Shown: one piece after another, positions 19,188-28,403 of the stretch | Position numbering within the stretch: position 1 is the first letter of the stretch | How the letters are laid out: each line of letters begins with the position of its first letter | The notes under the pieces: generated by a model | The model's database searches: none | Told to the model about the DNA's origin: nothing | Seen by the model: the letters and a program-made list of their open reading frames with translations, nothing else | Program-made: the position numbers and the translations under genes | Assembly: GCA_016699695.1 (NCBI GenBank) | Contig: CP065006.1 | Coordinates: forward strand, 3,229,435-3,293,434 | Direction of reading: 5' to 3' | DNA from: Bacteroidota bacterium | GTDB taxonomy: Bacteria; Bacteroidota; Bacteroidia; Bacteroidales; UBA10428 | Length of the DNA stretch: 64,000 nt

Positions 19188-19760
19188 TTGGTGGAAAGTA
19201 AAAAGCACGAACTGCTGCTGCGAGGGATAAAAAACCGCGATACACAAACTCTTAAGGCAGTGTACAAAGAGTTTTACCCTAAAGTTGCCGGTTTTATTGC
19301 CGGTAAAGGTGGGAGTGCAGACGATGCTAAAGATATCTTTCAGGAATCGCTCATGGTAATTTACAAACTTAGCTTAACAGATCAATTTACCATTGAAACC
19401 GATTTTGGAAGTTACCTGATAGGCATAGCCAAACGAATATATTTCAAACAATTACGACAAAAAGAAATTCATCATCGCTTTGTGGATGGATCGGAGAAAA
19501 CTTTTTCTGAGGATCATCCGTCTGATGTGGAAATTGAGAATGAGATTGAGCAGCATTTAATGCGTAAGTACCTTTTAGAGTTGGGCGAAATTTGTCGAAA
19601 AATACTGCTTTGGTCAGCCAGTGGAGTAAATAATGATGAAATTGCTGAGAAATTAGGGTATAAGAGCGAAAAAATTGTGCGTACAAAAAAACACAAATGC
19701 AAGAGCAGTTTAATTTCCTTAATTAAAGCCGATCCTTATTTTAAGGGTAAAAAGAGTTAA
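19188..19760 (+). CDS. ECF-type RNA polymerase sigma-70 family factor
   Basis: 190-aa ORF with region 2 (TLKAVYKEFYPKVAGFI...DAKDIFQESLMVIY...SYLIGIAKRIYFKQLR) and a region 4 HTH (CRKILLWSASGVNNDEIAEKLGYKSEKIVRTKKHKC). Only TTG (19188) or GTG (19191) start codons are available. Confidence 0.8.
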   Translation: MVESKKHELLLRGIKNRDTQTLKAVYKEFYPKVAGFIAGKGGSADDAKDIFQESLMVIYKLSLTDQFTIETDFGSYLIGIAKRIYFKQLRQKEIHHRFVDGSEKTFSEDHPSDVEIENEIEQHLMRKYLLELGEICRKILLWSASGVNNDEIAEKLGYKSEKIVRTKKHKCKSSLISLIKADPYFKGKKS

Positions 19761-19773
19761 TAGAGTCTTCTCT

Positions 19774-22548
19774 TTAATTTCTTTTTATCTTGAAGAATAA
19801 AAATCCTGCAAAAAGTATCATCGTAATGCCTCCGAAAATCCACCATGGTGACCGATAAACCGGATCTGCATTACCGATTAAGATGTAAGAAGACCAAAAA
19901 AATGGATGCTTGTATTGCTCCTGAGCGCTTTTTAGAAAATTGAGCTTTGCAAGACGCAAAGCCTCTGATTTGGATTTGCTTTTTAAAAGGTTTTTATAAA
20001 AATAATGCATCAAAGTTTTTCCCGATTCATCTTCTACTCTCCACAAGGTTATAACCAGACTTGGGCATCCGGCATAAAAAAATCCACGCGACAGACTCAT
20101 CACTCCTTCACCATTTTTAAGCTCTCCATGCCCCGAATTGCATGCGCTTAATACGGTGAGCTGTGCTTGCAGTTTTAATGAAAAAAGTTCGTTAGTATTC
20201 AAAAATCCATTGTCGTTGGTCAAGTTATTGTCTGCAAAAACCAATTTCGAAAACAATGGGTTTTTATCGTCGATAAGAGTGTGCATGGCCAAATGCAGAA
20301 TATCATAATTATTGGCAATCTCCAGGAAATTTTCTTTGGTTGCATCTTTTCCTAATGAACTGTTACCTCGTGTAAGTTTGCATACCATCAAAGCCTCTTC
20401 GAGGGCAAACGGCAATGGGAGCAGGTAATTTCGATAGTTTCTCACCTTATATTCATCGGTATTTTTTGCTTGCTGGCTAATTCTGGCAGAATAATCGGGC
20501 GCAACAGACAGGGTCTTATTCCATAATTTCTTACCTCCTCTGCCTAGCATTTCGGAATAAATCGAGGATGAATAGGCATAAGATATGGTATAATTGTAAA
20601 CCAGATAATTGAGGTTGTTAAAAGATTTGATGGGTAAGGCACTAGGTTTATCGACAAGCGCTTCAAAAGGAATATAGGAGATAAGTCCATCCGGAATTAT
20701 TACCAGGTTTTTTTTCAGCTTATCTTGATTCACTTTACTTAAAAGCTGTTGATATAGAAAAAACGCTCTTTTGTAGTACAAGCTATAAGTTGAATGGTTT
20801 TGACCTGAAAAATCAAAATTTTTAAACTCGTTGATATAGTTTCTAAGGCTGTCTTTTAGTGCATTGTTTAACTGGGTGCGATAAAAATATACCTCTTTTC
20901 GATTAATCACAAAGAGAAACAAACTCGTGTCGCTCAGGCTATATTCAAGCAAGGTTGTATTCCTATCGAGAGACGATTGCAGCGAGGGAATTGTAGAAAG
21001 ATTGGTTTTGTATTTTAGTGAGTAATATTCCGGAAAGTCTGAATCGAGTGTGTTTTTGAGCAATTCATATTGTCTGCTGAAGTTAAAGAGGTAGCTTTTC
21101 CACACATCAAGTTTAACCTGATCAGGCTTTAATTGTATGCTTTCTTCATATACTTTCTCGTTGTAAAATGCGATTTCACGTTTCAACCTGCTTTCTTTTT
21201 CTATTAGTGAATCGGGTATTCCTGCAAATTTTTTGGCTTTTTCTTCGCTCAATACTCCCAACAGCACCGAAGATTTACTTTGTTCAGCAAAATAGAATGC
21301 CTCTTCGAGGTATTGATATTGCCCGGTTACTGAGTATAATCTTTCAGCACAATCGAGACCCTTACTGTATACTTGACTTTCTTTGTCAGACAGGTATAGC
21401 TTGCTTTCTACCGATAAATACCCCTGCCTGATTTGGTGAATGACAAGCGCCAGCTCATGAAGGTTTTTGAGTGCAAATTCGAGGTATAAAAAATTCTTTT
21501 TCTGGGCGTACCAGGCAATATAGGTATCAGATAAAGTATTCAGTAAGCTTATTGTGTGAAGCAATGATCGATGCTGAATTTTAAGGGTATCGTTACCATT
21601 TTGATCCTGCAGGTATTTAAGTGCCATTTGATAATATGAAACTGCTTTTTCAAAATCATTCCTCACTTTCCAATAATTGCCATTAAGAACCATTATATCG
21701 AAGTAATACTTTGAATCGATGGACGATTGAATGTAAATAGATTCCGCTGACCTGATCGCTTTAAGAGCCAGTTCAGGCTGGTTAGTGCTCAAGTAATACT
21801 CAGCTAAGTGCTTGTATGAATCGCAATGTAGCTGAGGAGAATGATAATTGTGTTTATCGAATAATAAGAGACTTTGTTGGATAAAAAAGAAACTGCTATC
21901 TGCCATTTTTCGATTTTTAAAGCTTATTGCGGCCGTAATGTAGATATCATGCAGGGTTATGTACTGCTGAAGGTTGTGTCGCGAGAATTCACTAATGGCC
22001 AGGTTACTGAGCCGGGAGGCTTCTGAGTAATTCTTCCGGCTGTTTTCGAGCAATGCAAAGCGATTCAAGGTTTCTATTTTACGAAGGATGGCTTCTGTGG
22101 AATTCAAATTACCAAGTAGCTTCAAAGCCTCATCAAAGTATTCCACAGCCAGCGTAAAGTCACCCTTATGGCGGTATGCATTTCCCATGTTCGAATAAAG
22201 GTTAGCCATAGATAAGGCCGGGGCATCATTTAACATATAAATTTTCCTGGCACGGTTGAAATAATCTAATCCATTGTCGAAATGCCATTGATTTATGCAT
22301 AAAACGCCAAGGTTATTTAAATCGTGGGCAATATTTAAATGATTGGGTGGATAGAGTTGGAGCGATAATTCTAGTGTTTGCTTCAGAAGTGCTTCCGCTG
22401 TTATAAAATCGCCCGTGATAAATGCTTCCACACCTCTGTTGTTAAGAGTTTTGTTAGAATCTTCCAACGCACTAACTGGATTATCAGCTGGCTGACTTTT
22501 TAAACACTCGGCTGCAAAAAGTATCAAAATGATTAAGTGCAATTTCAT
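19774..22548 (-). CDS. exported TPR-repeat CHAT-domain (caspase-like) protease with a C-terminal membrane anchor
   Basis: 924-aa ORF with a signal peptide MKLHLIILILFAAECLKS. About 400 aa are TPR-like repeats (for example NLYSNMGNAYRHKGDFTLAVEYFDEALKL). The C-terminal CHAT domain carries His (ILHLAMHT) and Cys (LTVLSACNSGHG) dyad motifs. A terminal hydrophobic helix WWIFGGITMILFAGFLFF is followed by KIKRN. Confidence 0.85.
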   Translation of the reverse strand: MKLHLIILILFAAECLKSQPADNPVSALEDSNKTLNNRGVEAFITGDFITAEALLKQTLELSLQLYPPNHLNIAHDLNNLGVLCINQWHFDNGLDYFNRARKIYMLNDAPALSMANLYSNMGNAYRHKGDFTLAVEYFDEALKLLGNLNSTEAILRKIETLNRFALLENSRKNYSEASRLSNLAISEFSRHNLQQYITLHDIYITAAISFKNRKMADSSFFFIQQSLLLFDKHNYHSPQLHCDSYKHLAEYYLSTNQPELALKAIRSAESIYIQSSIDSKYYFDIMVLNGNYWKVRNDFEKAVSYYQMALKYLQDQNGNDTLKIQHRSLLHTISLLNTLSDTYIAWYAQKKNFLYLEFALKNLHELALVIHQIRQGYLSVESKLYLSDKESQVYSKGLDCAERLYSVTGQYQYLEEAFYFAEQSKSSVLLGVLSEEKAKKFAGIPDSLIEKESRLKREIAFYNEKVYEESIQLKPDQVKLDVWKSYLFNFSRQYELLKNTLDSDFPEYYSLKYKTNLSTIPSLQSSLDRNTTLLEYSLSDTSLFLFVINRKEVYFYRTQLNNALKDSLRNYINEFKNFDFSGQNHSTYSLYYKRAFFLYQQLLSKVNQDKLKKNLVIIPDGLISYIPFEALVDKPSALPIKSFNNLNYLVYNYTISYAYSSSIYSEMLGRGGKKLWNKTLSVAPDYSARISQQAKNTDEYKVRNYRNYLLPLPFALEEALMVCKLTRGNSSLGKDATKENFLEIANNYDILHLAMHTLIDDKNPLFSKLVFADNNLTNDNGFLNTNELFSLKLQAQLTVLSACNSGHGELKNGEGVMSLSRGFFYAGCPSLVITLWRVEDESGKTLMHYFYKNLLKSKSKSEALRLAKLNFLKSAQEQYKHPFFWSSYILIGNADPVYRSPWWIFGGITMILFAGFLFFKIKRN

Positions 22549-22742
22549 TCTGAAGAAATGAATAGGTAGATGAATAACATGAAAGTACTAAAATTTATTC
22601 AATTTAATATTCTAATAATCAACAAATTAATAAATAGGTGTTGTTTTTTTTTATTTTTTTCATTAGAAACCGGTGACATTTTAGTGTCCAGTGGTACTTA
22701 ATAGTAAAACAATGAATTATTATTCACTTATACATAAAAGCA

Positions 22743-22877
22743 ATGAAACTTTTTAACAAATCTTCAGAAAGAAAAAGCAGCGATTTTAATCTGGCTCAAA
22801 AGCAAGTATTAAGTGTAAAAGAATTAATGACTATACGCGGTGGCGATGAGCACGGTGGTATGATCATAAGAAAATAA
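22743..22877 (+). CDS. 44-aa peptide precursor with a double-glycine (bacteriocin/pheromone-type) leader
   Basis: Hand translation gives MKLFNKSSERKSSDFNLAQKQVLSVKELMTIRGG-DEHGGMIIRK, with stop TAA at 22875..22877. Residues LSVKELMTIRGG match the GG-leader consensus LSxxELxxIxGG at every position. It is too short for the supplied ORF track. Confidence 0.6.
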   Translation: MKLFNKSSERKSSDFNLAQKQVLSVKELMTIRGGDEHGGMIIRK

Positions 22878-22894
22878 TATCCAAATAGGCATTC

Positions 22895-22980
22895 AAATAT
22901 CCCAAAGCGGGTTTAATTTAACCTGGTTTTAACGGCACTCATTCCCTTAGAATATAATGTACCCCGCTTTGGTGATATTT
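22895..22980 (+). repeat. structured element A: 17-bp stem enclosing the conserved 18-mer TGGTTTTAACGGCACTCA
   Basis: The left arm aaatatcccaaagcggg (22895..22911) pairs with the right arm cccgctttgg(t)gatattt (about 22963..22980) with one bulge. The loop carries the 18-mer at 22924..22941. It starts 18 nt after the peptide stop codon. Confidence 0.55.
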
Positions 22981-23126
22981 GGAAAAATGGTCCAACTTTT
23001 TTTTGAGAAAGTTTGACTTAAAAAGTGGGATCAAATAACTTGGGAAACCAATTTGGCGGTTGTAAGCATTAAAGTTTAATACGTAATAGTTAGTAAAAAA
23101 ATGGAAAAATAAATTCCAACCTTCCC

Positions 23127-23195
23127 GGGCGGGACAAAGCTCTTTTGGTTTTGACGGCACTCAATATACCTCTCTTATCTTCTTTTGTTCCGCCC
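23127..23195 (+). repeat. structured element B: 13-bp stem enclosing the conserved 18-mer TGGTTTTGACGGCACTCA
   Basis: The left arm gggcgggacaaag (23127..23139) pairs with the right arm cttttgttccgccc (23182..23195), including two G-T wobbles that work only on the plus strand. The 18-mer at 23146..23163 differs from copy A at one base. In both copies the spacer from the 18-mer to the right arm is 20-21 nt (21 nt in A, 20 nt in B). Confidence 0.55.
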
Positions 23196-23378
23196 ACTTT
23201 TTTATACTTCTGAATATAGCATACAGATATAAAAGATACATAGATATTATTGTCTACTGAAACCTTAACCTTCTATTCTTTTACTGGTAACCCCAGGTAA
23301 TACGTGGATATATTTCTTTATTTTGCTCCCGAAAAATTTTTATGGGGTGCATTGGTGAATAACTGAACCCAAATTATT

Positions 23379-24140
23379 ATGGCTAAAGAACTGGATTACA
23401 CTCAATTTATTGAGCGATACCTGCAACAAGAAATGAGCCCAGCTGAAAAAGTATGGTTTGAAAAGGAATTGCAGGGAAACTCATTGTTACAGGATGAATT
23501 GCTCTTTTACCGAAAGGTAAACCAGGTGCTTGCTGAAAAAGAACTGGTCGATTTTAAGTTGCAGCTGGATGCAATTCACAGAGAAATTATACAAACTTCA
23601 GTTGGAGGTCAGCACTATATCAGACAATACAGAAAAAAGATTAACCTGCTGGCCGGAAGTGTGATGGCAGCTTCTGTCGTATTGAGTTTATATTTTCCAA
23701 ACCGTAAGATATCCGATCAGAATCTTTACAATCGCTATTTTGAACCAGCTTCCTTTTCAGTAAGTTACCGCGATGCCAGCGAGCAAGACAGAATGCTGAA
23801 GGAGGCTATGCAGTTGTACGAAAGTAAGCAGTATTCAGAAGCAATCAGTCATTTCGAAAAAATCATGATCATTGAACCTAACAAATATGGGATAAATCTT
23901 TATGCTGGGATAGCCCATATGGAATTGGCACAATACCCCCAGGCTATTCTTCGGTTCAACACGATTTTAACTCAGGATTATGGCCCATTTTCCGAATCGG
24001 CTAGCTGGTATTTGGGGCTTTGTTATTTGTATTCCAACGAGAAAACAAAGGCAAAAAATCTGTTCGAAGGTTTGATGCAATCCGACGGATATTACAAGCG
24101 CGATGCCCACCGTATACTTAAGCATATGAAAGGTAAATAG
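23379..24140 (+). CDS. single-pass membrane TPR protein, anti-sigma-factor-like
   Basis: 253-aa ORF with a soluble helical N-domain (YTQFIERYLQQEMSPAEKVWFEKELQGNSLLQDELLFYRKV) and one TM segment (LLAGSVMAASVVLSLYF). The C-terminus has TPRs (EAMQLYESKQYSEAISHFEKIM; YAGIAHMELAQYPQAILRFNTIL; WYLGLCYLYSNEKTKAKNLFEGL). There is no zf-HC2 motif, so the anti-sigma role is inferred from architecture and context. Confidence 0.6.
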   Translation: MAKELDYTQFIERYLQQEMSPAEKVWFEKELQGNSLLQDELLFYRKVNQVLAEKELVDFKLQLDAIHREIIQTSVGGQHYIRQYRKKINLLAGSVMAASVVLSLYFPNRKISDQNLYNRYFEPASFSVSYRDASEQDRMLKEAMQLYESKQYSEAISHFEKIMIIEPNKYGINLYAGIAHMELAQYPQAILRFNTILTQDYGPFSESASWYLGLCYLYSNEKTKAKNLFEGLMQSDGYYKRDAHRILKHMKGK

Positions 24141-24230
24141 TTTGATTGGAATTAGCCTTATACCAGATATTTATTAACGGGACAAATGTCTATTGCTTTA
24201 AATTGAAACAATTCTCAAAAATGATGTGAG

Positions 24231-25148
24231 ATGAACCCTATAAGGATGATCCAGGAATGGATCAAGGCATTTATGCCAAAACATCGGATTATAAGCGATT
24301 ACAATCAAATGGTAAGCCGGTTAAAACAACTTGAAATGCAAGTTGCACAAAGTTCACAGCAATTGGAGCTGGCAAAGGCAAGCTTCCTGAAAAACATCTA
24401 CCATGAAATTCGCACGCCCCTTAATTCCATAATAGGGTTTACAAATCTGCTTGATAATAAACACCTACTTGCTCCTGAAGAAAGAGAAGAATATACTAAC
24501 CTTATCAATGTAAATAGCCGTAAGTTTTTAAGCCTACTTGACGACATTATTCAAGCATCTCTGCTTGAAGCCGGTATGATAAAGATTAAGCCCGAACCTG
24601 TTTGTTTGGGCGAATTCTTTGATGAAAACCATAGTTTTTATTCTATCCGCCGACATACCCAGGAAAAGAATGCCATTGCACTTTTGCTAACGGTAGAAGA
24701 AGACATAAAGCAAAAAAGCTTTGTTTTTGACCGTTACCGAATAGCACAAGTGCTTACTCAATTAGTCGATAATGCGCTGAAGTATACTGATAAAGGAGTG
24801 GTGGAATATGGTTGCACAATTCAGAATGAACGTCTGGAGTTCTTCGTGAAAGACAATGCAATACCTATACTAATGCCTCAAAAGAGATTGCTGTTTAAAA
24901 AGTTCTCGAAATTAGAGGTATCAAAAACAAATGATGGCGGCTTAGGTTTAGGTTTGTCTATTTGCAAAGATTTGCTCCAATTAATGGAAGGAGATATTCT
25001 TGTAGAATCAAATCATGGACATGGAAACACCTTTATTTTTTCTATACCTGCCATTATCTCGAAGGATGAGAACAATTTGATAACTGAGCCAATAAAAGAA
25101 TCACGCATACATTTTTTTCAAAGAGCAACTACATATCGGGCTGTGTAA
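24231..25148 (+). CDS. cytoplasmic histidine kinase lacking a sensor domain (degenerate G1 box)
   Basis: 305-aa ORF with an N-terminal coiled coil, H-box FLKNIYHEIRTPLNSIIGF, N-box LVDNALKYT and G2 GGLGLGLSICK. Where DxGxG is expected the sequence reads VKDNAIPI. Confidence 0.75.
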   Translation: MNPIRMIQEWIKAFMPKHRIISDYNQMVSRLKQLEMQVAQSSQQLELAKASFLKNIYHEIRTPLNSIIGFTNLLDNKHLLAPEEREEYTNLINVNSRKFLSLLDDIIQASLLEAGMIKIKPEPVCLGEFFDENHSFYSIRRHTQEKNAIALLLTVEEDIKQKSFVFDRYRIAQVLTQLVDNALKYTDKGVVEYGCTIQNERLEFFVKDNAIPILMPQKRLLFKKFSKLEVSKTNDGGLGLGLSICKDLLQLMEGDILVESNHGHGNTFIFSIPAIISKDENNLITEPIKESRIHFFQRATTYRAV

Positions 25149-25160
25149 TTTGTATAATAA

Positions 25161-28100
25161 TTAACCAAGCGAATGCTCTTTTCTTGGCAACGTGAAAGAG
25201 AATGTAGTTCCCTTTCCCAGTTCACTATCGACCATTAACTCGCCTTGGTTTTTTTCAATAAACTCTTTGCAGATTATTAAACCTAAGCCAGTACCGTTTT
25301 CGCCTGCGGTACCGGTGGTAGAGAAATATTCGTCGATTCGGAAAAGTTTTTTGATATTTTCCTGCGATATTCCAATTCCGGTATCTCTTATTGCAATCAG
25401 GCATTTATCCTGCGAGATATCTGAGCAACTAATCGTGACAATTCCATTGTTTGCTGTAAATTTTATAGCATTACTCACAAGGTTACGAATAATAAGATTT
25501 ACCATATTGAAATCGGCCCATGCCTTTCCACTGCATTCCATTTTTGTTTTGATGGCAATGCTTTTTTTCTCAGCATTGCCAGTACTTAGAATAACAATCT
25601 GTTGAATTATTTCGTGCAATTGTATGTGGTCTGGTGTATACTTGATACGCTCAGTTTGGGTGCGAGCCCATTGAAGGAGATTCTCTAGCAGGTTATATGC
25701 ACTCTCTGAAGAAGTTTTAATCATACCCAAGAGATCAAGGCGCTGTTTCTCTTCAAAATCTTCAAAATTCCGCATGAGCAATTCCGAGAAGCCAAAAATG
25801 GCCTGGAATGGATTTTTTAAATCATGGGCAATTATAGAAAAGAATTTATTTTTTGTTGCATTTAGTTCCTCCAGTCGGGCATTTGTTTTTTTCAAGATAT
25901 CAGACTGCCGGTTTAACTCTTCGGCCTGTATCTGAATTTTTTCCTGCCTTTCCTCCAGTAATGTATTTACTTCTTTCAAACTTTCCGCTTGCTCAATTAA
26001 TTGCTTTTCAGTGTTTTTTTGCTTAGTAATATCCCGGCCAATGCCCACAATACCCATAATTTTACCATCGACATCTTTAAAAGGTACTTTGGTTGTTGAA
26101 ACTACTTTTTCCCTTCTTTCTTCATCAAAGCCAATTTCTTCTTTGTTAATCATGGCTTTACCCGTGCGCATAATCCTAACCTCGTCGTTGAAGTATTCTT
26201 GGGCTGCTTCTTTTGAAGGTGCAAGGTCAAAATCGGTTTTCCCAATGATATCGTCAAGGTTGTCGGTTTGCATAGTATCGAGCATTCGCTTATTCACAGT
26301 AATAAAGCGGCTTTCGGCATCTTTTATATAGATAAAGTCAGGCATGTTATCGATCAGGGTACGTAAAAGCGAACGTTCCTTTTCAATCATTTTATTTTGT
26401 TCTTCCAGCCATTCCGATTGTTTAAGTATTTCTTCCGAACGTTCCTCCAGCAATTGGTTGACTTCTTTAAGGTCTTCGGCTTGCTGTTCGAGCTGCTGTT
26501 GGTAATTTTTAAGTTCGGTGATGTCTTTTGTAATACCAACCAGTCCTAATATTCGCCCATCTTCGTCGAAATAGGGTACCTTGGTTACCGTCCGGAATAT
26601 CTTTTCTCCATCGTCAAGAACACGCAATTCTTCTTTGTTTATTACTGCCTTTTTTTGTGCAATAATTTGTTTTTCCAATTCGATGAACCTTTGCGCCTGG
26701 TCCTTTGGATAGAAGTCAAGATCGCTTTTTCCTTCAAGTTCATAGGACGAGTTAATTCCAAGTTTTTCCATCAGTGACTTGTTGGCCAGTACAAAGCGGC
26801 TTTGGGTGTCTTTGATGTAAATAGAATCGGGGATATTGTCGATAAGCACTCTTAGGAGGTTTCTTTCGTTTTCAACTATTTTATTCTGGGTTGCCAGTTC
26901 TGAGGATTGCTGTTGAATTTCTTCCTGACGTTCTTCTAGTACTACATTCACCTCTTTGAGGTAATCGGCCTGCTCCTGTAGTTTGATTTCGGTTTCTTTC
27001 AGAGATGTAATGTCTTTTCCAATTCCTACAATACCTTCTATTTCCCCATCGGCATTTCTGTATGGCACTTTGCTTGTTAGCAAATACATGAGGTTCCCGT
27101 TTTTATCCAGACTAGTTTCCTCAATGCCAATCATTGGGCTGCCTTTCGAAATAATCCGCTGATCGTCGGAAAAAAATTTCTTGGCCATTTCTTTCGGATA
27201 GATGTCAAAATCAGATTTTCCTTTAATTTCTTCCTCCGAAGCGATGTTCAAGGAATCGAGCATGTACTGATTGGCTGTAATAAAGGTGCTGTTTTTATCT
27301 TTGATGTAAACAAAATCAGGCAGGTTGTCGATCAGGGTGCGCAGCAGTTTTCGCTCACTTTCCAGTATTTTATTTTGTTCGCCTAATTCATCGGCCTGTT
27401 GGTTAATTTCTTCCTGTCTTTCTTCGAGCAATACATTAACCTCTTGCAGGTTTTGTGCCTGTTCAATTAACTTTTCTTCAGTTTCCTTAAGCTTGGTAAT
27501 ATCACGGCCAATGCCTACCAATCCTAGAATTTTTCCGTTTTCATCTTTAAATGGCACTTTAGTTGTAGAGCGAACCCTGATATTTCCTTCTTTGTCGAAG
27601 CCTATTTCTTCTTTATTAATCACCGACTGGCCGGTGTCCATTATAAATTTATCGTCCTTATAAAAGATATCAGCAATTTCTTTTGGATAGTAATCGAAAT
27701 CGGATTTTCCGAGAATTTCACTTCTCGATTTGGCTTTGGTAATCTCAATCTGTGCGATATTGGCATCTAAAAAGCAACATTCGCTATCTTTTATATAGAT
27801 GGCATCCGGCATATTATCTATCAAGGTACGTAGCAAAAGTCTTTCTTTTTCAATTTCCTCATTTTTCTGTGTCAACAACTCGTTGTAAAGATTTTGCTGA
27901 GTAGTGTCAGAAATTATTCCTAAAAGGCCTATTAATTTGCCATTTCTATTTTTAAGAGGGTATTTTCTTGTAACTGTGAATTTGAGTATTCCGTTGTTCT
28001 CGCTTCGCTGTTCCCGAAGCAATTCAGGCACATCATTGTATAGTATTTGCTGGTCTTCGTAATTGTATTTGGCAGCAATACTTTCTTCGTAAAGGTCCGA

Positions 28101-28403
28101 ATCGTGCTTACCTATTAATTCTTTCGGTGATGATTTTTTCAGTAAGCTGGCAAACTTTTCGTTTACCACGATATACTTTCCATAGGGGTCCTTAATAAAA
28201 ATGCTATCGGGAAGGTTGTTTAATAAGGTAATGAAGGGTACTGTTTCCTCGGGATTCAATTCGCTAAGGTCGCGTAGAATGCCCATTGGACCTTTGAAAT
28301 ATTTTAAATACAAGTAAATTCCAAGTGCTGTAATCAGCGCACCTGTCATAAAAGGAATAACGAATTGAAAGCTCAGGGTTGAAAAATAGGTAAGTGAAAT
28401 CAC
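25161..28403 (-). CDS. membrane-anchored multi-PAS sensor histidine kinase
   Basis: 1080-aa ORF with an N-terminal TM helix and five PAS modules separated by coiled-coil linkers. It then has H-box FFSIIAHDLKNPFQAI, N-box LVSNAIKFT, G1 IRDTGIGI and G2 GTGLGLIICKEF. Confidence 0.9.
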   Translation of the reverse strand: MISLTYFSTLSFQFVIPFMTGALITALGIYLYLKYFKGPMGILRDLSELNPEETVPFITLLNNLPDSIFIKDPYGKYIVVNEKFASLLKKSSPKELIGKHDSDLYEESIAAKYNYEDQQILYNDVPELLREQRSENNGILKFTVTRKYPLKNRNGKLIGLLGIISDTTQQNLYNELLTQKNEEIEKERLLLRTLIDNMPDAIYIKDSECCFLDANIAQIEITKAKSRSEILGKSDFDYYPKEIADIFYKDDKFIMDTGQSVINKEEIGFDKEGNIRVRSTTKVPFKDENGKILGLVGIGRDITKLKETEEKLIEQAQNLQEVNVLLEERQEEINQQADELGEQNKILESERKLLRTLIDNLPDFVYIKDKNSTFITANQYMLDSLNIASEEEIKGKSDFDIYPKEMAKKFFSDDQRIISKGSPMIGIEETSLDKNGNLMYLLTSKVPYRNADGEIEGIVGIGKDITSLKETEIKLQEQADYLKEVNVVLEERQEEIQQQSSELATQNKIVENERNLLRVLIDNIPDSIYIKDTQSRFVLANKSLMEKLGINSSYELEGKSDLDFYPKDQAQRFIELEKQIIAQKKAVINKEELRVLDDGEKIFRTVTKVPYFDEDGRILGLVGITKDITELKNYQQQLEQQAEDLKEVNQLLEERSEEILKQSEWLEEQNKMIEKERSLLRTLIDNMPDFIYIKDAESRFITVNKRMLDTMQTDNLDDIIGKTDFDLAPSKEAAQEYFNDEVRIMRTGKAMINKEEIGFDEERREKVVSTTKVPFKDVDGKIMGIVGIGRDITKQKNTEKQLIEQAESLKEVNTLLEERQEKIQIQAEELNRQSDILKKTNARLEELNATKNKFFSIIAHDLKNPFQAIFGFSELLMRNFEDFEEKQRLDLLGMIKTSSESAYNLLENLLQWARTQTERIKYTPDHIQLHEIIQQIVILSTGNAEKKSIAIKTKMECSGKAWADFNMVNLIIRNLVSNAIKFTANNGIVTISCSDISQDKCLIAIRDTGIGISQENIKKLFRIDEYFSTTGTAGENGTGLGLIICKEFIEKNQGELMVDSELGKGTTFSFTLPRKEHSLG
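25886..27845 (-). repeat. intragenic tandem array of four roughly 490-nt PAS plus coiled-coil modules
   Basis: Protein repeats begin at about aa 187, 351, 514 and 677 with ER(L/K/N/S)LLR(T/V)LIDN(M/L/I)PD..YIKD. Each ends in (E/D)IT.LK..E..L.EQA..L.EVN.LLEER.EEI. The units are also recognisably similar at DNA level. Confidence 0.8.

Follow-up and report, generated by a model that had tools for sequence, protein, structure and literature searches.

A split, peptide-linked variant of the DdvA/DdvS system in Bacteroidia as a candidate protease-gated sigma switch

In Myxococcus xanthus, the protein DdvA combines in one polypeptide a zinc anti-sigma domain, a membrane helix, and a periplasmic portion made of tetratricopeptide repeats (TPR) and a CHAT protease domain (PDB 8ROT; PMC11506125). 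The paper that describes DdvA proposes that the CHAT domain cuts in the juxtamembrane linker and that RseP then follows; it found no fusions of the DdvA type outside Myxococcota and one Comamonas (PMC11506125). Here, a gene module from a 64-kb stretch of a Bacteroidota genome (the whole of that stretch is called the window) is compared with DdvA/DdvS and with other known systems. The module occupies positions 19188-25148 of the window. It comprises genes for a sigma factor of the extracytoplasmic function (ECF) type, a TPR-CHAT protease, an anti-sigma factor, a peptide precursor with a double-glycine leader, and a histidine kinase. DdvA/DdvS is its closest precedent, and the Bacteroidia module is a split, peptide-linked variant of it.

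The likeness to DdvA/DdvS has several parts. In both, a small cytoplasmic helical anti-sigma domain contacts the two domains of an ECF sigma factor (predicted here), there is a single membrane helix, and a TPR-CHAT portion with a His/Cys dyad is placed in the periplasm, with a fold match at E 4.4e-13. The differences are equally concrete. Unlike DdvA, the anti-sigma and the protease each have their own membrane anchor here, and they are two genes in 82 of the 82 loci of a comparison set that holds 80 loci with CHAT relatives from species-representative genomes plus the two loci of the window's own genome. The anti-sigma domain of the module lacks zinc ligands, sequence-level similarity to DdvA is not detectable, and the split form is confined to Bacteroidia at close likeness. 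DdvA/DdvS belongs to a CBASS-CRISPR island, whereas the predicted regulon of the module consists of secreted-peptide genes. An earlier, sequence-only reading of this DNA had known of no experimentally described system with such an architecture; DdvA/DdvS is one, a transmembrane anti-sigma with a periplasmic TPR-CHAT (PMC11506125).

The same reading had compared the module with type III-E Craspase. Craspase consists of Cas7-11, the TPR-CHAT protein Csx29, Csx30, Csx31, and RpoE, and its protease cleaves the sigma regulator (PMC10028731). Here too a TPR-CHAT protein is encoded beside an ECF sigma, and Csx29 is the best structural match to the protein of the window. However, Craspase is a cytoplasmic, RNA-guided CRISPR effector, whereas the protease of the module is predicted to be exported and its partner to be a membrane anti-sigma, not Csx30. 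DdvA/DdvS is thus the closer of the two. In Actinobacteria, ECF54 sigma factors are reported to have CHAT-domain proteins in their gene neighbourhood, and proteolytic control has been proposed for them (PMC8999054). They share with the module the genomic tie between an ECF sigma and a CHAT protein; unlike it, they come from another phylum, are described as having no anti-sigma, and have no reported peptide genes (PMC8999054).

Proteolysis of anti-sigma factors is, of course, well known, both for RseA, with DegS and RseP, and in cell-surface signalling, with Prc and RseP (PMC10392083). The module resembles such systems in its single-pass anti-sigma and in the site-1 cut, followed by RseP, that is proposed here. 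It would differ from them in two respects: they use a general serine protease for the site-1 cut, whereas the candidate here is a cysteine protease of clan CD, dedicated and encoded within the module, and the candidate input is a self-made peptide.

Peptide-pheromone circuits built on double-glycine peptides are known from Gram-positive bacteria, namely competence of the ComC/ComAB type and the induction of class II bacteriocins. These circuits and the module have in common a small double-glycine precursor, an ATP-binding cassette (ABC) exporter with a C39 peptidase and an accessory protein, a histidine kinase gene in the locus, a fast diversification of the mature peptide, and a positive feedback on the peptide gene (inferred here). 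The module differs in using an ECF sigma and anti-sigma in place of a response regulator, in a kinase that has no membrane sensor, in a host with an outer membrane, and in the presence of a caspase-like protease.

No description of the Bacteroidia module was found in the literature, which was searched mostly outside subscription journals; a listing in an ECF catalogue is possible. The reading that is held to be probable, if only just, is that the region is a peptide-fed-back, protease-gated sigma switch, one module conserved across Bacteroidia. The features on which this reading turns are the following, each with its basis.

19188..19760, + strand: ECF-type sigma factor, 190 aa (TIGR02937, linkage, complex prediction).
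19774..22548, - strand: TPR-CHAT caspase-like protease, 924 aa, predicted to be exported and anchored in the inner membrane (Pfam, invariant dyad, topology, fold).
22672..22697, + strand: candidate ECF-type promoter; its two hexamers are separated by 14 nt, and it lies 46 nt ahead of the start codon of the peptide gene (motif family).
22743..22877, + strand: double-glycine-leader peptide precursor, 44 aa, with a 34-aa leader and a 10-aa core (positional equivalents, leader pattern, sister gene).
23379..24140, + strand: putative anti-sigma, zinc-less, single-pass, 253 aa (complex prediction, model, topology, CHAT linkage).
23379..24140, predicted domains of the same protein: helical and cytoplasmic in 1-72, a membrane helix at about 89-106, and TPR in the periplasm at 135-250.
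24231..25148, + strand: soluble sensor-less histidine kinase, 305 aa (HisKA and HATPase_c only).

The five genes proposed by the sequence-only reading were re-derived by listing and translating open reading frames (ORFs), and all were reproduced. The sigma factor scores 47.8 bits against the NCBIfam ECF superfamily model TIGR02937 (cut-off 42.9), with residues 22-168 covered, and 21.3 against Pfam Sigma70_r2, just under the cut-off of 24. Its assignment to the ECF sigmas (group IV) follows from the curated ECF model that it passes and from the cognate anti-sigma that is encoded with it. Cysteines 136 and 171, in the half that holds region 4, are invariant in 21 of 21 aligned module sigmas; such residues are unusual among ECF sigmas.

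The case for the anti-sigma is made by structure prediction. In the model of the 253-aa protein, four helices are followed by a disordered stretch and then by a membrane helix at 81-105, with TPR from residue 135. The basic residues next to the membrane helix are concentrated on its N-terminal side, and the N-terminus of the protein is therefore placed inside. The sigma was then modelled with residues 1-88 of this protein in three runs, with controls. The interface score ipSAE (interaction prediction score from aligned errors) was 0.86 in 3/3 runs, and 0.18 in the best control; the mark used is one that 58/80 solved complexes and 2/110 mismatched pairs reach. The runs share at least 91% of their contacts, and the predicted local distance difference test score (pLDDT) of the partner is at least 77. 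Residues 46-71 of the anti-sigma contact sigma residues 17-60 and 121-179 in the predicted complex, that is, both sigma domains. The N-terminal domain is thus predicted to clamp the sigma by touching both its domains, as the earlier reading had supposed when it had this domain bind the sigma.

The class of this anti-sigma has to be worded with some care. Residues 1-110 have no Pfam match, zf-HC2 included, and in the alignment the positions of the zinc ligands hold other residues; one long relative gives a faint zf-HC2 match (E 0.018). The absent zinc motif does not, of course, exclude a class I anti-sigma fold, because zinc-less members of that class exist, and an N-terminal bundle that binds sigma regions 2 and 4, which marks the class, is what the complex prediction gives. 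A profile search of the protein against solved structures returned TPR proteins only, and public records label the family simply as TPR protein. Across the loci the anti-sigma is either 250 or about 510 aa long, with no CHAT domain; the copy of a sister species is 85% identical to that of the window. The longer form is found in L050, L054, L078, L080, L065, and other Prolixibacteraceae, where about 280 unclassified residues stand between the membrane helix and the terminal TPRs. Within the periplasmic linker (107-134), Arg131 is invariant in 21 close sequences. It was considered as a possible cut site; the census figures for this position are dominated by unrelated TPR proteins.

The protease is recognized more directly. 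The protein scores 201.8 bits against Pfam CHAT (PF12770), in a domain C-terminal to the TPR repeats, which are matched by several TPR models. The residues H756 and C803 are invariant in 74 homologues and are kept in 72/72 of the close genera of a census described below. By profile and catalytic dyad, the protein is classed with the clan CD caspase-like proteases. The full-length model has a pLDDT of 86.7 and a predicted template modelling score (pTM) of 0.83. Searched with Foldseek, it is best matched by Csx29 of Craspase (8eey_B, E 2.3e-15, TM-score 0.57 on the target), with human separase (9hn0_B, E 3.6e-14) and DdvA (8rot_A, E 4.4e-13) also found. A sequence search against solved structures returned TPR proteins only, with no sequence-level similarity to DdvA. 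The pair of residues that had been proposed as catalytic thus stands at the catalytic positions, being invariant in a predicted fold that matches known TPR-CHAT proteases.

Where the protease would act is suggested by its topology. Of 74 homologues, 63 open with a hydrophobic, signal-like segment, 71 have a membrane helix at the C-terminal end, followed by a basic tail, and 0 have an internal helix of this kind. Because of the signal-like N-terminus, the C-terminal helix, and the lack of an internal helix, the whole TPR-CHAT portion is placed in the periplasm, tethered to the inner membrane. This conserved topology agrees with the earlier claim that the protease and the TPR half of the anti-sigma both lie outside the cytoplasm, and both are indeed predicted to be periplasmic. 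It does not agree with the comparison to RRNPP receptors that had been made at the same time. That comparison does not fit: RRNPP receptors are cytoplasmic, and for both TPR domains of the module a periplasmic position is predicted; nor did a Pfam domain search find the DNA-binding or phosphatase domain of an RRNPP-type effector. The cytoplasmic tail of the CHAT protein has 14-23 residues in most homologues, ending in a recurrent Leu-x-Glu/Asp-Pro-like motif (P0007-P0017). The tail of the window's protein (19774-19800) has 5 residues and does not carry that motif.

The fold raises a question of function. In both precedents, the coupling of CHAT to an ECF sigma serves defence (PMC11506125, PMC10028731), and the fold of the protein resembles both Csx29 and DdvA. 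The module might be one more regulator of a defence island, like DdvA/DdvS or type III-E, or what is left of such a regulator, and control antiviral genes. This is considered very improbable. The whole genome has no match to a RAMP protein of the Cas7-11/gRAMP type and the window has no CRISPR-like repeat, which bears out the absence of a CRISPR link asserted earlier; PADLOC defence models match none of the sigma, CHAT, or anti-sigma proteins. There is no defence gene among the recurrent neighbours, and the predicted regulon consists of the peptide genes and the module itself. A cas1-like ORF at G000:C1:2928064-2928765, about 300 kb from the window, reaches 67.6 bits against a cut-off of 71.7 and is unrelated to the module.

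That these genes belong together is evident from their conservation. The 80 fetched loci are all from Bacteroidota, many of them from Prolixibacteraceae, Marinifilum, Labilibaculum, or Sunxiuqinia. The CHAT gene has a sigma homologue next to it in 68/82 loci and an anti-sigma homologue in 67/82; many of the loci that have no such homologue are truncated by contig ends. The commonest gene order is that of the window, with the anti-sigma divergent from CHAT and the sigma convergent after CHAT (21 loci). In the second order, a sigma/anti-sigma operon is convergent with CHAT (17 loci). A paralogous triad of this second kind exists in the same genome (G000:C1:2496780-2501008), where a 974-aa TPR-CHAT gene is convergent with a sigma/anti-sigma operon. 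The expected synteny of sigma, anti-sigma, and TPR-CHAT genes in related Bacteroidia genomes is therefore confirmed.

A census of one genome per genus, sorted into bands of likeness and compared with random places, puts this linkage on a wider footing. An ECF sigma lies within 3 kb of the CHAT domain in 18/150 genera of the lowest band, 21/75 of the middle band, and 39/72 of the top band (random places, 6/300). These figures are probably an undercount, since the sigma of the window itself barely passes the neighbour model that was used. CHAT lies within 5 kb of the anti-sigma in 42/225 of the lowest band and 54/75 of the middle band (random places, 3/300). The close bands consist of the class Bacteroidia only, with 72 genera for CHAT and 111 for the anti-sigma; CHAT as such occurs in 7227/36145 genera of the census. 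Judged by this conservation in sequence and order, the five elements are no chance juxtaposition; they are one signalling module conserved across Bacteroidia. Two further protein clusters lie near the module, one of about 613 aa in 20 loci and one of about 245 aa in 16 loci (examples are L041:13616-15457 and L078:10842-11579). Neither has a Pfam match.

The peptide genes are small enough to be missed. A pattern scan of small ORFs for double-glycine leaders gave 89 such ORFs across the 82 loci, where shuffled sequence gave 9. Of these, 83, in 53 loci, are encoded just upstream of CHAT on the other strand, in 1-5 copies; where the flank is at least 1 kb, a peptide gene is present in 48/61 loci. 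Between the nearest peptide start and the start of the CHAT ORF there is a median of 182 nt, and the peptide genes abut the CHAT gene divergently in either of the two sigma/anti-sigma gene orders. The cores have a median length of 13 aa and a median net charge of -3, and are net negative in 60/67 distinct peptides. Per codon, non-synonymous change between loci amounts to 0.088 for the leader and 0.326 for the core, meaning that, on these sequences, the leader codons are the more constrained and the core diversifies fast. The curated bacteriocin-leader model TIGR01847 reaches its cut-off in 5/9 relatives tested. For the peptide of the window no curated leader model matches; its Gly-Gly motif is recognized on inspection and by the pattern scan. 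In the sister species this peptide gene is present as well, called by its annotators, with a core one residue shorter. By these comparisons, the small ORF is a genuine gene.

The genes next to the peptides carry the argument further. In the closest relatives, the strand runs from the promoter through the peptide, the anti-sigma, and the sensor-less kinase to a peptidase-containing ABC transporter of the C39 type (PCAT) and HlyD, and a C39 ABC exporter is encoded near the module in 10 related loci. In the window's genome, which is complete (3.97 Mb; completeness 99.7%), an orthologue of this exporter, 57.7% identical, is found with HlyD 1.29 Mb away, at G000:C1:1959106-1965688. That distant locus carries two double-glycine peptide genes as well. 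The exporter there follows a membrane kinase and a regulator that resemble a LytS/LytTR pair (a label taken from the N-terminal sequence only).

Such a combination can also be read in another way. Class II bacteriocin loci are characterized by just this pairing of double-glycine leaders with PCAT/HlyD exporters, and peptide genes that are multi-copy, that diversify fast in the core, and that fall within the predicted regulon of the sigma would suit a locus whose purpose is to export antagonistic or other extracellular peptides. Here, the peptides would be the product, and sigma, anti-sigma, and CHAT would regulate them on some other envelope cue sensed by the TPRs. Cores so short and so often negative are, however, unlike typical cationic bacteriocins, and no immunity-like or modification gene recurs among the neighbours. 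Further, the peptide genes always adjoin the CHAT gene, whatever the order of sigma and anti-sigma. Four Prolixibacteraceae loci carry promoter, peptide, and anti-sigma as a tandemly duplicated unit beside a single CHAT gene; therefore, the peptide and the anti-sigma are argued to work as a pair. The view of the peptides as products is rated as unlikely, though not negligibly so. The four loci with this duplicated cassette are among those with the anti-sigma of about 510 aa.

The tightest positional link of all, that between the peptide and CHAT genes across their common divergent spacer, permits a different assignment of the protease. CHAT might act on the peptides themselves, maturing the exported precursors or destroying them so that the signal is reset, with the anti-sigma left to another site-1 protease or to a direct ligand. 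Several clan CD proteases (separase, gingipains, metacaspases) cut after basic residues, and the residue three before the end of the peptide leader is Lys or Arg in every case. Such a Lys or Arg is, to judge from matching curated models, common in Bacteroidota double-glycine leaders generally, and the closest relatives have an exporter with a dedicated C39 peptidase. Because the peptide has no Sec signal and would be cut during export, the leader is normally gone before it could meet a periplasmic protease. This assignment is given a smaller chance still than that of the peptides as product. Returning to the switch, the part that the sequence-only reading had given to the adjacent peptide is strongly supported, by positional conservation, by the double-glycine-leader ORFs, and by a shared promoter motif.

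This motif consists of two blocks with the spacing of an ECF promoter, and lies upstream of the peptide genes in about 30 loci. The matrix built from it also matches immediately in front of the sigma gene, in nine loci that have the second gene order (10/2000 random windows match), and never before the CHAT or anti-sigma genes of the loci. ECF sigmas classically transcribe their own operon. Since the motif precedes the sigma gene, it is taken as the cognate promoter, which would put the peptide genes in the regulon. Thus, we infer that the sigma transcribes the peptide genes and, in one gene order, its own operon. The variant of the promoter found in the window is common to L008, L023, and L055; between the window and the sister species both hexamers are conserved while the spacer varies. 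General scans for sigma-70-type promoters and intrinsic terminators gave no more sites than shuffles did.

Two places elsewhere in the genome deserve mention beside this motif. The family matrix finds one strong site, of 31 bits, at G000:C1:183060-183927 (+), about 300 nt before another, unrelated ECF sigma/anti-sigma pair, with a terminator-like hairpin between. This site may give a short sigma-dependent transcript, or may reflect cross-talk between sigma systems. A near-identical copy of the window's own promoter variant stands at G000:C1:1737168-1737193 (-), before an operon whose products are predicted to be secreted; its first ORF has six tandem 8-nt repeats in the signal-peptide region, like a phase-variation tract.

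The mechanism that is proposed can now be set out. The N-terminal domain of the anti-sigma would hold the sigma through both sigma domains, while its TPR domain and the whole TPR-CHAT portion would sit in the periplasm, each anchored to the inner membrane. By analogy with the model for DdvA and with regulated anti-sigma proteolysis, CHAT would clip the anti-sigma in its short periplasmic linker, and the site-2 protease RseP, which the window's genome encodes, would then free the sigma. The sigma would transcribe the peptide genes, and in one gene order also the sigma/anti-sigma operon, to give a feedback loop. More speculatively, the exporter would release the short, mostly acidic core peptides, these would attach to one of the TPR domains in the periplasm and govern how active the protease is, and the module would behave as an autoinducing, quorum-sensing-like switch. 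The peptide may be either an activator or an inhibitor, and a securin-like inhibitory role fits equally well. In its fullest form, with exported acidic double-glycine peptides, periplasmic sensing by TPR, a protease cutting a zinc-less anti-sigma, an ECF sigma as output, and cores that resemble pherotypes, this would be a Bacteroidia peptide-pheromone pathway of an undescribed kind. So far-reaching a proposal is possible, and is put forward as a tentative one.

Several points weigh against the switch and must be set beside it. Its steps differ in standing: the binding of the sigma is predicted from models, sigma-dependent transcription is drawn from a motif, cleavage of the anti-sigma by CHAT is drawn by analogy, and the sensing of peptides is speculation. 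The analogy itself has a limit, for in DdvA the proposed cleavage by CHAT is not demonstrated (PMC11506125). The score of the sigma/anti-sigma complex may partly reflect likeness to solved complexes; because complexes of this kind have already been solved, a pass means likeness to known complexes and is no proof for this copy. In 13 of the 61 loci whose flank reaches 1 kb or more, no peptide gene was found; at the paralogous triad, pattern scans gave neither a double-glycine peptide gene nor a promoter match. The promoter copy of the window scores low on the family matrix (10.3), and no family promoter stands before the window's own sigma or CHAT gene. Contigs from RNA libraries, to which we return below, can fix neither transcript ends nor transcript levels.

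Two more such points concern the copy of the module in the window. The locus there, like that of the sister species, has no exporter pair, and the G1 ATP-binding box of its kinase is degenerate, its glycines gone, whereas the relatives keep them. With no exporter genes at the locus and a degenerate G1 box, the module as it stands in the window may be reduced, partly degenerate, or rewired. Clustering places the kinase after the peptide or anti-sigma genes in 32 loci. Convergent with it in the window, at 25161-28403 (-), is a gene for a 1080-aa membrane histidine kinase with five PAS domains; in L004, L005, and L008, the same flank likewise has a kinase on that strand, beyond the exporter genes.

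Between the peptide gene and the anti-sigma gene, the spacer holds three further features.

22894..22981, + strand: hairpin 1, downstream of the peptide gene; its loop carries a conserved motif (z -3.66 against shuffles; covariance model 72 bits).
23127..23203, + strand: hairpin 2, with the same loop motif, then a U-run (z -2.71, against -0.41 on the - strand; covariance model 78 bits).
23279..23328, + strand: 50-nt block before the anti-sigma gene, fully conserved in the sister species.

Both structured repeats named by the earlier reading are present, at 22894-22981 and 23127-23195, and on the + strand both fold better than shuffles. The loop motif of 17 nt is common to both hairpins and occurs nowhere else in the window. 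When the stems are compared with those of the sister species, each has one compensatory swap (in hairpin 2, from G-C to A-U), and the G.U wobbles pair only in RNA of the + strand. The 5' half of each loop is identical in the two species. The motif is found in the same place in L004, L005, and L008. Because the covariance model finds no distant copies, only its training copies and one weak match in L023, the hairpin with this loop motif appears to be confined to the closest clade. Hairpin 2 is terminator-like, and is probably the remnant of a decayed second peptide cassette. An Rfam scan of the spacer gave nothing above chance, the one match being of 21.6 bits against a gathering score of 75.2. 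A sigma-54 or ECF promoter within the loop was considered and rejected, its second element not being conserved among the five copies. The 50-nt block may be a separate promoter or the 5' leader of the anti-sigma.

DNA nearly identical to the window is present in activated-sludge and wastewater metagenomes, and contigs from the RNA libraries of a bioreactor metatranscriptome cover part of the module; the CHAT gene is uncovered there. The depth of these contigs, which does not measure transcript levels, is 30 over the hairpin region, 302 over the anti-sigma, and 57 over the kinase, the climb from 30 to 302 being seen from position 23248 on. Hairpin 1 is covered in three runs. In run X18, parts of the CHAT and sigma genes are uncovered, which is no evidence of silence.

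What would the module mean for the biology of these proteins and these bacteria? CHAT proteases are widespread, and few have a known substrate; a conserved, co-encoded anti-sigma is a concrete candidate for one. Because ECF sigma genes are enriched near CHAT in every band of the census, well outside Bacteroidia, DdvA and Craspase may be special cases of a broader pairing. The module is invisible to current annotation, which calls the anti-sigma a TPR protein and often does not call the peptide genes at all. Peptide-based signalling between cells is considered rare in Gram-negative bacteria. The module may be a peptide-signalling pathway of that kind, hitherto undescribed. If this is true, a Gram-negative peptide pathway would be open to testing in Marinifilum, Labilibaculum, Sunxiuqinia, Prolixibacter, and Gaoshiqia, all of which can be cultured.

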